Below, in pieces: positions 56,091-64,000 of a stretch of DNA of 64,000 bases (positions within the stretch are counted from its first letter, which is position 1; each line of letters begins with the position of its first letter). The notes beneath the pieces are model-generated. The model searched no databases. It had not been told where the DNA came from and worked only from the letters and a program-made list of their open reading frames with translations. The stretch covers positions 413-64,412 of the forward strand of contig CACBHX010000001.1 of NCBI GenBank assembly GCA_902539145.1, written 5' to 3'. Source of the DNA: an uncultured Pelagibacteraceae bacterium. Lineage in GTDB: Bacteria; Pseudomonadota; Alphaproteobacteria; Pelagibacterales; Pelagibacteraceae. The position numbers and the translations under genes are program-made.

Positions 56091-56999
56091 ATGAAAAAGA
56101 AAATTATTTCTAAAATATCAGAAGGACTTGGTAACCAACTTTTCATGTATGCTAATTCTTACTCATTAAGTAAAAAAAATAATTTTGATCATTACATAGA
56201 CTCCACAAGTGGATATTATCAAAATAAACATATATACAATTTTATTTTGGATAGATTTTGTATATCTGCAAAGATAGCACCTAAAAAATATACTTTTGAA
56301 AATTCACATAAGAATTTTTTAAAAAAAATTTTGATTTTCTTTGATAGATTTAGTTTAGATAACAAATTTTATTTTGAAAAAAAAGACATCAACAAAAGTA
56401 CACAATTTTCGCCATTGGATCTAGACAAATCTCATAATCATTTTTTTTTAGATGGTAACTTTGAATCTGAGAAATATTTCGATGAATATCGAAATGACTT
56501 GTTAAAAGAATTTACTTTAAAAAATAAAGATCAATTTTCTAATAATAGATATTTAGATATCATCAAAAAAAATAATGTCGTATCGATTTGTGTTAGACAA
56601 AATAGATTTTCAGAAAGAATAAACAATAGAAATTCCTCAAAAAATTTACGTAAATCTTCTGTTTACGTGGATGAAACAATAAATTATATCAATAAAGCAA
56701 TGAATTATTTTAATAAAAGAGTTAATAATCCAAAATATCTGATTTGGAGTAATAATTTTGATAATCTTGAAAAATATTTCGATACAAAAAAATTTATTTT
56801 TGTAGTCAATGATAATGATAAAATTCTAACTGATTTTTTTTTACTTACACAATGTAAATATTTCATTGTAGGTCCATCAACCTTTCATTGGTGGGGTGCT
56901 TGGTTATCAAATTTTAATGATAAAATCTGTGTTAGACCTAAAAATTTAAATCCATCAAATAATAAGGATTTCTGGCCAGAAAAGTGGGTTATAATTTAA
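56091..56999 (+). CDS. Alpha-1,2-fucosyltransferase-like (GT11)
   Basis: GLGNQLFMYA, G.FESEKYF, STFHWWGAWL; HxRxxD motif altered to CVRQNR. Confidence 0.82.
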   Translation: MKKKIISKISEGLGNQLFMYANSYSLSKKNNFDHYIDSTSGYYQNKHIYNFILDRFCISAKIAPKKYTFENSHKNFLKKILIFFDRFSLDNKFYFEKKDINKSTQFSPLDLDKSHNHFFLDGNFESEKYFDEYRNDLLKEFTLKNKDQFSNNRYLDIIKKNNVVSICVRQNRFSERINNRNSSKNLRKSSVYVDETINYINKAMNYFNKRVNNPKYLIWSNNFDNLEKYFDTKKFIFVVNDNDKILTDFFLLTQCKYFIVGPSTFHWWGAWLSNFNDKICVRPKNLNPSNNKDFWPEKWVII

Positions 57000-57949
57000 A
57001 TTTTTATTTTATTAAGTGCATTATTTTTAAATATATTTGCTTCCCTAATATATCTTCTGACCATTTGTGTTGTCTTATGGCCTGTCATTGCCATTATACT
57101 TCTTTCATCTGCCCCAGATTCAGCGGCTACAGTTGCAAAACCTGACCTTAAACTATGACCTGCAAAATTTTTATTTTCAATACCTGCTAAATTTAAATAT
57201 TCTTTCATTAGCCAAACTACAGATTGATCAGTCAATCTTTGATTAGTTAATGATGAACCTTTAGAAAATCTTCTAAATATTGGTCCTGAATTAATTTTAG
57301 AAATTTCTAACCATTTTTTTAAATTTGTAACAGGACAGTAAATATCATTAGTGAAGTAGGGCAGTCCTTTAACCATTCCTTCACCAAATTGATCAGTTTT
57401 TGATTTTTTAATAATGATTTTGAGACCTTCAGGGACAAATTCTAAATCCTCATGGTCAATTGAAACTAGTTCGGTTCTTCTAAAACCGCCTCCAAAGCCA
57501 ATTAAGATTAATGATTTGTCTCGAAGTTTTTTTATTTCCTCAGTTTTTTGTTCATTTATTACATTAATAATTAATTTTAAATGATTGATTAATAATGGTT
57601 TTTTACCTTTCTGAATGCTACCTTTAACCCTTCTTATCCCCATTAAATTTTCAACTATAATTGGATGTTTAGTGTCTAGATAATGACCTTTCAGCTTATG
57701 AACCATACTTATTGAAACTAATCTTCGTCTTAAAGTGCTTATTTTTGAGTTTTTAGAGAGATGGGTTAGATACAAGGAAACTATTTTCGGCTCTGTTGGT
57801 AATGAATTTAATCCATGTTTTGCACAAAAAGTTCCAAAGTCTTTAAAATCCGATTTGTAAGCTCTTAGAGTATTGTTTGCTTTAGAGATTTTAAGATTGT
57901 TTAAAGTTGCCTCATGAAGTGATTTTAGGTCTGTAGTAAGTTCATTCAT
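56996..57949 (-). CDS. Cre-like tyrosine site-specific recombinase
   Basis: NTLRAY N-domain; catalytic R (GFRRTEL), K (KSKTDQ), HxxR (GHSLRSG), H (TGHK), Y (VRRY) all present. Confidence 0.93.
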   Translation of the reverse strand: MNELTTDLKSLHEATLNNLKISKANNTLRAYKSDFKDFGTFCAKHGLNSLPTEPKIVSLYLTHLSKNSKISTLRRRLVSISMVHKLKGHYLDTKHPIIVENLMGIRRVKGSIQKGKKPLLINHLKLIINVINEQKTEEIKKLRDKSLILIGFGGGFRRTELVSIDHEDLEFVPEGLKIIIKKSKTDQFGEGMVKGLPYFTNDIYCPVTNLKKWLEISKINSGPIFRRFSKGSSLTNQRLTDQSVVWLMKEYLNLAGIENKNFAGHSLRSGFATVAAESGADERSIMAMTGHKTTQMVRRYIREANIFKNNALNKIKI

Positions 57950-57952
57950 ATA

Positions 57953-57987
57953 ATTACTATTGATAACATTTAATTATCATTAGTAAT
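57953..57987. promoter_or_regulatory. Putative recombinase binding/crossover site (14-7-14 inverted repeat)
   Basis: ATTACTATTGATAA-CATTTAA-TTATCATTAGTAAT, 13 of 14 arm positions complementary, asymmetric spacer, 3 bp upstream of the recombinase ATG. Confidence 0.72.
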
Positions 57988-58029
57988 ATATCAAGTGATT
58001 TTTAATGTCAATAGTTTAAATTAAAATAT

Positions 58030-58203
58030 ATGGGTTCAATTGATGGAGAAATACCTGCGGTATGGTTTTTGATAAGTTCAATTGGATTTATTATTTTAAG
58101 TGTTATTCAGTATAAAAATACTGGCAAAAGTATAAATACAATATTTTTATCAAGTATGGCTATTATATTTTTTGTAAGTTACCTAATATTGCTTACAAAA
58201 TAG
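58030..58203 (+). CDS. Unannotated 57-aa two-TM membrane protein
   Basis: ATG 58030 to TAG 58201-58203: MGSIDGEIPAVWFLISSIGFIILSVIQYKNTGKSINTIFLSSMAIIFFVSYLILLTK; absent from the ORF track (shortest listed ORF is 60 aa). Confidence 0.6.
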   Translation: MGSIDGEIPAVWFLISSIGFIILSVIQYKNTGKSINTIFLSSMAIIFFVSYLILLTK

Positions 58204-63565: not shown

Positions 63566-64000
63566 TTATCTTTTAGAAAACTGGAAACTTCTTCTCGCTT
63601 TTTTTCTTCCAGGTTTTTTTCTTTCAACAGCACGAGAATCGCGAGTGGTTAATTTTTCAGTTCTAAGTGATGTTTTAAAATTTTCATCAAATAAAACCAA
63701 AGCTTTAGAAATTCCATGAACCATTGCTCCAGCTTGACCCGTTGGTCCTCCACCCTTTACATTGCATCTAACGTCAAAATCAGTAGATTGTTTAATCAAT
63801 TCAAAAGGTTTTGTTATTTGCATTTTATGATTATCACTTGAAAAATATTCACTATAAAGTTTTCCATTAACATAAATTTTACCAGAACCTTTTTTAAGCC
63901 AAACTTTTGCAATTGAAGTTTTTCTTCTACCAGTGGCATATTTGCTATCTTTAAAATCTAATTTTAACTTTATCTTTTTTTGATTTTGTTGAGTACTTTC
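63566..64000 (-). CDS. rpsI: 30S ribosomal protein S9 (5' end beyond window)
   Basis: Frame open to nt 64000 including YATGRRKTS; GGGPTGQ, RKKPG...QFSKR. Confidence 0.97.
   Translation of the reverse strand, partial: ESTQQNQKKIKLKLDFKDSKYATGRRKTSIAKVWLKKGSGKIYVNGKLYSEYFSSDNHKMQITKPFELIKQSTDFDVRCNVKGGGPTGQAGAMVHGISKALVLFDENFKTSLRTEKLTTRDSRAVERKKPGRKKARRSFQFSKR

Follow-up and report, generated by a model that had tools for sequence, protein, structure and literature searches.

The 64,000-nucleotide stretch of contig CACBHX010000001.1 analysed here (the window), from an uncultured Pelagibacteraceae (SAR11) bacterium, carries a tyrosine recombinase gene and, directly before it, a 35-bp palindrome. 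We believe that the two together quite probably form a single-recombinase chromosome dimer resolution system at the SAR11 replication terminus. This reading draws on the conservation of the gene–site pair, its position at the terminus, the lack of XerCD, the presence of RecA and FtsK, the homology with the plasmid recombinase IntA and a Cre-like fold. An earlier note, made from the letters of the window, had suggested that a Cre-like recombinase may replace XerCD/dif at the terminus of a streamlined chromosome, and this suggestion is now supported by conservation, skew position and XerCD absence. The window comes from contig 1 of an assembly of 629 kb with a completeness of 65%.

The orthologue of the recombinase gene was found in 183 of 201 Pelagibacteraceae genomes (among those of high quality, in 150 of 161), and 10 of 11 genera have it, with protein identities of 52-94%. 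Most genomes of the family hold exactly one Phage_integrase-family gene (G083 and G067, for example, gave a single match each), and extra members are sporadic and longer. The gene at 56996-57949 is likewise the sole member of this family found in the source assembly. In each of the 22 diverse genomes compared, and likewise at 80 out of 80 additional loci named Pelagibacter or Pelagibacteraceae (102 in total), the site stands directly before the gene. Synteny is kept on both sides of the module, the flanking genes converge on the site, and small variable gene cassettes directly flank the module. The gene with its palindrome is near-universal and syntenic in the family, and the patchy distribution that would have spoken against the earlier suggestion was not seen.

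The arms of the site vary in step with each other. Type A reads ATTACTAAYGATAA...TTATCAATAGTAAT and type B reads TTTCCGATAA...TTATCGGAAA, and the differences are symmetric in both arms: ACTAAYGATAA is paired with TTATCAATAGT in some genomes and TTTCCGATAA with TTATCGGAAA in others. The arm type also follows a 12-amino-acid indel of the protein, type B occurring with the proteins that do not have the 12-residue insert. In a quick tree, type B was basal and type A derived. The spacer, read on the gene strand, is TTAATGG in 68 of the 80 loci of other species and TTAAATG in the window. Type and genus are discordant in some cases, as G056 (genus g11) has type A and G119, G133 and G174 (genus g1, that of the window) have the basal type B, which could mean that homologous recombination has exchanged the module between genomes or that the polymorphism is old. 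At L259:1463-1497, in the single-cell genome AG-430-G21, the 35-bp site as a whole is in its usual place but in reverse orientation relative to the gene, with the spacer CAATTAA, and the promoter, flanks and gene are unchanged.

The palindrome is present where the earlier note had placed it, 3 bp from the ATG, as an imperfect 14-7-14 repeat in which 13 of 14 arm positions pair. Within the window, no other 14-7-14 repeat has one mismatch or fewer. Block shuffles gave 0.13 such repeats per window and at least one in 11% of shuffles; as chance is not excluded by the shuffles, the case for the site rests on conservation. The site is single copy in the source assembly, and in the complete genome G013 it is single copy even when 8 substitutions are allowed. 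In none of the 22 genomes did a second site turn up within 10 kb, and matches to the 11-mer half-site inside the gene were no more frequent than chance. Readings of the site as an inversion switch or as an IMEX-type site were dropped, because there was no second site within 10 kb.

The position at the terminus was examined by skew analysis. G013 is a single contig of 1,343,202 bp with 28.6% GC; the site lies at 617,601-617,635, the cumulative GC-skew maximum at 615,774 (1.8 kb away), the AT-skew maximum at 620,847 and the point opposite the GC-skew minimum at 619,240. In G063, a genome of another genus (1,059,009 bp), the site is at 426,161 and the GC-skew maximum at 427,063 (0.9 kb away), the skew being computed from contiguous sequence around the site and sampled sequence elsewhere. 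The site thus stands at the skew inflection in both genomes, as a terminus function would have it. The gene is 40-49% of the circle from dnaA in 20 of the 21 one-contig genomes of known length, and in G013 dnaA itself lies about 7% away from the skew minimum. Across the whole of G013, the motif GAGTAGG occurs 54:8 on the leading and lagging strands, respectively (87% leading), AGTAGGG is likewise biased, and the polarity of GAGTAGG flips between 586,756 and 627,810, i.e., across the site. We regard GAGTAGG as a candidate FtsK-orienting (KOPS-like) motif and as a lead only, because the motif was chosen using the terminus itself.

In the complete genomes G013, G109 and G063, the best scores with the XerD and XerC models were 66-81 bits and came from this gene alone, with cut-offs of 330 and 335, respectively. 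The two genomes of the sister family f2 have one XerD-like gene each (316-322 bits) and one XerC-like gene each (311-314 bits). A search for the canonical dif core CATAA-N6-TTATG within 60 kb of the G013 terminus was negative. Judged by these scores, Pelagibacteraceae are without XerC and XerD, in agreement with the idea that no XerCD/dif system exists elsewhere in these genomes. RecA is present, and ftsK, which the earlier note had tied to the system, was searched for and found with its gamma domain, in the source assembly as well.

The catalytic residues R157, K184, H265, R268, H291 and Y300 of the recombinase, which form the R-K-HxxR-H-Y signature, are unchanged across 22 orthologues, and the open reading frame (ORF) is intact, so the description of an intact Cre-like tyrosine recombinase stands. 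The protein (P0001) matched Pfam Phage_integrase over the catalytic domain (8e-19) and has a SAM-like N-terminal domain. Its structure was predicted by AlphaFold with a mean local confidence (pLDDT) of 94 and a predicted template modelling (TM) score of 0.83, and shows five N-terminal helices. When this model was searched with Foldseek, the top 33 matches were Cre or Cre-derived recombinase chains with TM scores of 0.70-0.83, and the best Cre superpositions covered the full length with TM scores of 0.77-0.83. The TM scores against XerH and XerA were 0.58 at best and about 0.45, respectively. The predicted fold is Cre-like. By sequence, the identity between P0001 and Cre is 16-18% (phmmer E 3e-4), which speaks against close sequence kinship. 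The models of XerD, XerC, XerA and XerS gave 44-73 bits, with cut-offs of 220-335: XerD 73 bits (cut-off 330), XerC 61 bits (cut-off 335) and XerS (NCBIfam NF003462) 44 bits over the C-terminal half only (cut-off 267), so the protein is not XerS. Close homologues in Candidatus Pelagibacter and Pelagibacteraceae carry the annotation "site-specific integrase" or "XerD". The ORF is covered by metatranscriptome contigs of two studies, which, being contigs only that do not give transcript start or strand, are weak evidence of expression of the gene.

Outside SAR11, the nearest relatives belong to an extensive family (2,597 clusters at E<1e-30, identity 35-46%). Homologues were found on 1,504 plasmids across many phyla, often beside toxin-antitoxin genes, and a close homologue was found in 3 of 199 other alphaproteobacterial genomes sampled. 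In the quick tree, the SAR11 proteins are monophyletic (support 99) and nested in the IntA-type plasmid family, with the protein of a marine alphaproteobacterial metagenome-assembled genome (MAG) as sister of the SAR11 clade and XerD as a distant outgroup. It has been shown that IntA of Rhizobium etli recombines a 23-bp site, TCCGATAAGCATTACTTATCGGA, that is, TCCGATAA-GCATTAC-TTATCGGA, and its documented activity is plasmid cointegration (PMC4928290). On plasmid p42a, a gene for an integrase of 382 amino acids has the IntA site 108 bp upstream of it, in a form that differs from the published sequence at one position. IntA and P0001 share 27% identity (E 8e-22). The site of the window shares only GATAA and TTATC of the IntA core (GATAA-N7-TTATC), and the type B sites of SAR11 carry the exact TCCGATAA-N7-TTATCGGA. 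The likeness to the R. etli IntA sites, which the earlier note had put forward, proved correct by the published site, the p42a site and the protein homology. The best reading of the palindrome is as the crossover site of the recombinase. Plasmid and marine MAG homologues with 38-45% identity also have a site of like kind beside the gene (Table 1), and in the plasmid relatives it can lie 100-880 bp from the gene. At L193:5881-5903, a homologue with 43% identity stands beside a BREX defence cluster, and a CCGATAA-N7-TTATCG site lies 116 bp upstream of its start.

The minus-strand TTGACA that the earlier note had pointed out is real and conserved, at a constant 27 nt from the GATAA core across orthologous loci. 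The further claim, that the -10 element lies inside the right arm, stood in part, as the candidate -10 elements reach into the distal arm by no more than its outermost 3-5 bp. The TTGACA promoter is absent from the output of a promoter scanner, whose own rules are stricter. From its sequence, we infer that the TTGACA/-10 pair functions as a promoter. Being between the conserved TTGACA and the ATG, the site lies within the 5' leader.

We propose the following course of events. RecA-dependent crossovers between sister chromosomes would give a chromosome dimer with two 35-bp sites in direct repeat. Two recombinase monomers would bind the arms of each site, a tetramer would pair the sites, and strand exchange across the 7-bp spacer, like that of Cre at loxP, would yield two monomeric chromosomes. 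Because the site is where the replication arms meet, septal FtsK, which has kept its DNA-reading gamma domain, could bring the two copies together at division, either activating the enzyme or merely aligning the sites. In E. coli, Cre-loxP at the position of dif has been shown to resolve chromosome dimers, for which FtsK translocation is needed and FtsK activation is not (PMC2680272). Since the site overlies the promoter and 5' leader of the gene, the bound recombinase would probably limit its own synthesis. As for the origin, a plasmid multimer-resolution module probably replaced XerCD-dif in the ancestor of Pelagibacteraceae; the Cre-like fold and the plasmid-borne family, which includes IntA with the same core, make it likely that such a module was captured by the chromosome. 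A fuller version is conceivable but rather doubtful: that the captured Cre/lox-like module replaced XerCD-dif, needs FtsK for alignment and not for activation, also decatenates sister chromosomes in the genus Pelagibacter with its single type IIA topoisomerase, and represents a fifth solution, evolved independently, to the problem posed by circular chromosomes.

Several points weigh against dimer resolution as the function of the module. The relatives are mostly plasmid or island genes, and as IntA cointegrates plasmids, dimer resolution is not the sole activity known in the family. The palindrome taken alone is explicable by chance in an AT-rich window, as the shuffles showed. The small cassettes that flank the module could be explained by an integration role. 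One outlier, G095, has the gene 14% of the circle (193 kb) from dnaA and a rearranged skew pattern, which is due to a large rearrangement or else to a fault of the assembly; in the first 680 kb sampled, about half of the genome, a local plus-to-minus skew switch is still at most 1 kb from the site. The contig of the window ends 12.7 kb past the site, too soon for its skew, which merely plateaus there, to be decisive. For the SAR11 protein and site, binding, catalysis, dimer resolution, FtsK guidance and autoregulation are all steps that we infer.

One rival reading is that the module is mainly a landing pad, where the recombinase would bring episomes, phages or gene cassettes into the chromosome or release them, the terminus position being a by-product. 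The documented cointegration by IntA (PMC4928290), the occurrence of homologues on so many plasmids and beside defence islands, and the variable small cassettes on both sides of the module would all fit such a role. We nevertheless consider it very unlikely. Neither a second nor a degenerate site was found within 10 kb in the 22 genomes, and G013 holds a single copy; the gene is fixed, single-copy and syntenic family-wide, with mobile-element genes absent nearby; and the match with the skew switch in two genera and the loss of XerCD would be left unexplained.

It is very unlikely, in our opinion, that the site is a regulatory element only, i.e., an operator or an mRNA leader hairpin, with the recombinase acting elsewhere or being a domesticated relic. 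The site does sit in the leader, and a 14-7-14 repeat would fold as RNA too. However, the same core is the proven recombination site of the homologue IntA (PMC4928290), the sites of plasmid relatives can be far enough from the gene to lie outside any leader, and the site at L259 was inverted in place with the gene intact. Furthermore, G013 offers no other copy of the site to act on, and none of the six catalytic residues varies.

Five complete genomes of genus g1 (G013, G109, G111, G055 and G083) have a single GyrA/ParC-family gene, and the three of them checked for GyrB/ParE (G013, G109 and G111) have a single gene of that family, so genus g1 apparently has no topoisomerase IV. Two GyrA/ParC and two GyrB/ParE genes were found in G063 and in G025 of the sister family, and G026, for which the count covered GyrA/ParC, has two. 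In this respect g1 resembles Helicobacter pylori, as both are without topoisomerase IV and both have a single recombinase; PMC3325230, as cited in PMC5357621, proposes that H. pylori uses its recombinase XerH for unlinking catenated chromosomes, and a work cited in PMC2680272 reports that XerCD-dif-FtsK is able to decatenate in E. coli. That unlinking of catenated sister chromosomes is the main task of the module is nonetheless highly improbable, since G063, with its two type IIA topoisomerases, has kept the module just as well, and the loss of topoisomerase IV thus cannot explain the existence of the module; decatenation and dimer resolution are compatible and not exclusive roles.

Chromosome dimer resolution is the function that we prefer, and the features of the module and of the related sites are collected in Table 1.

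Table 1. Features of the recombinase module in the window and sites beside homologous genes on other replicons
Feature	Position	Strand	Sequence	Remarks
Tyrosine recombinase gene	56996-57949	minus		Intact ORF of 317 amino acids, no stops; protein P0001
Candidate dif-like recombination site	57953-57987		ATTACTATTGATAA-CATTTAA-TTATCATTAGTAAT	14-7-14, 35 bp; ends 3 bp from ATG
Same site, gene-strand reading	57953-57987		ATTACTAATGATAA-TTAAATG-TTATCAATAGTAAT	
Gene-proximal arm	57953-57966			Changes symmetrically with distal arm across genomes
Asymmetric 7-bp spacer	57967-57973		TTAAATG (gene strand)	Presumed crossover region
Gene-distal arm	57974-57987			Outer bases overlap candidate -10
Candidate recombinase promoter	57983-58011	minus	TTGACA, TATTAC	-35 at 58006-58011, 17-nt spacer, -10 at 57983-57988
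Alternative extended -10	57985-57993	minus	TGnTATATT	
Alicyclobacillus plasmid site			ATGTCCGATAA-N7-TTATCGGACAT	Beside homologue gene
Skermanella plasmid site			CTTCCGATAA-N8-TTATCGGAAG	Beside homologue gene
Rickettsiales plasmid site			CCGACAA-N7-TTGTCGG	Beside homologue gene
Marine MAG site			ATTACTTCCGATAA-CATACAA-TTATCGGAAGTAAT	3 nt from ATG

The neighbours of the recombinase gene are glpX, rpsI, an ogt-like gene and genes for glycosyltransferases, transporters, a GIY-YIG protein and the dehydrogenases of homoserine and aspartate semialdehyde. A domain search of these neighbours found no phage, conjugation or transposase domains, as the earlier note had read from the sequence. Its statements on the strands of the tRNAs and of the genes up to rpsI were also borne out: the tRNAs for Lys, Pro and Glu are on the plus strand and that for Ser on the minus strand (three of four on plus), and all ORFs from 59231 through rpsI (63566-64000) are on the minus strand. 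Directly downstream of the recombinase, the gene at 56091-56999 encodes a family-11 glycosyltransferase in the window and varies among strains. On the side of the site, a 57-amino-acid hydrophobic ORF (58030-58203) is divergent from the recombinase; its start is kept in some strains and replaced in others. The small ORFs on this side also differ among strains when the window is compared with the equivalent positions of 21 genomes, and the genes farther out on either side are kept. Cassette turnover has a small hotspot at the terminus, where there is no second recombination site.

Pelagibacter (SAR11) is the most abundant ocean bacterium. A 2009 paper stated that P. ubique has no dif/Xer system, and SAR11 has served as the example of a free-living organism that lives without dif/Xer, taken as evidence that streamlining can discard the system (PMC2731167). 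If the module works as proposed, this conclusion would be wrong, as the function would have been kept and the machinery swapped. We found no published description of a SAR11 dimer resolution system in the literature; the later surveys and reviews consulted do not mention SAR11, and Kono et al. 2011 makes no mention of Pelagibacter. In a preprint of 2026, Arctic strains are credited with "XerC and XerD" on the basis of automatic annotation (bioRxiv 10.64898/2026.10.07.757358), and the automatic labels "XerC", "XerD" and "integrase" in SAR11 genomes need re-reading. If our reading is true, a new protein lineage, with a Cre-like fold and a plasmid IntA-type sequence, would join the few single-recombinase systems, and a plasmid stability module would have turned to an essential-type chromosomal function, in a natural version of the dif::loxP experiment. 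The 35-bp site could also serve as a precise terminus marker for SAR11 genomes and MAGs, and the small recombinase with its defined site is a candidate genetic tool.

The SAR11 module can be compared with several known systems. In Cre/loxP of phage P1, loxP is built as 13-8-13, and the SAR11 site similarly has arms of about 14 bp and an asymmetric 7-bp spacer; Cre is also the best structural match of the SAR11 protein. Cre keeps the P1 plasmid monomeric (PMC2409434). In contrast to Cre, the SAR11 protein, with its low sequence identity, is encoded by a chromosomal core gene of the family and is located naturally at the terminus. By analogy, the SAR11 module looks like the natural counterpart of the engineered dif::loxP with Cre. 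IntA/attA of p42a shares with it the homologous protein, the GATAA-N7-TTATC core and a site adjoining the gene, whereas IntA, at 382 amino acids, is plasmid-borne and cointegrating. The SAR11 genes, for their part, group in a separate clade and are located at the terminus of the chromosome.

XerS/difSL of streptococci and lactococci and XerH/difH of Helicobacter and Campylobacter have the gene beside the site at the terminus, in the absence of XerCD (PMC5357621, PMC2731167). The SAR11 module is built in the same way, as a lone recombinase adjoins a unique palindromic terminus site in a genome without XerCD, and the difSL arm TTTCCGAAAA resembles the type B arm TTTCCGATAA. However, the proteins belong to other families, as the XerS model score and the comparison with the XerH fold indicate; the SAR11 protein is about 40 amino acids shorter, and its spacer is 7 bp long, compared with 11 in difSL and 6-10 in difH. 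XerL/dif of Legionellales, which with XerS, XerH and XerA belongs to the functional class of single-recombinase Xer systems, had been missed by homology searches, in a group once scored as having no dif/Xer (PMC9765430). In Legionella, unlike in SAR11, the gene and the site are more than 400 kb apart, and the two systems are likened here by description, not by sequence. With XerC/XerD-dif, the SAR11 module shares the terminus position and an FtsK with gamma domain; it differs in having one protein rather than two, with model scores of about one quarter of the cut-offs, and a 14-7-14 site rather than the 28-bp dif of 11-6-11. Dimer resolution by a single recombinase is thus known as a kind, and it is the protein lineage that is different here.

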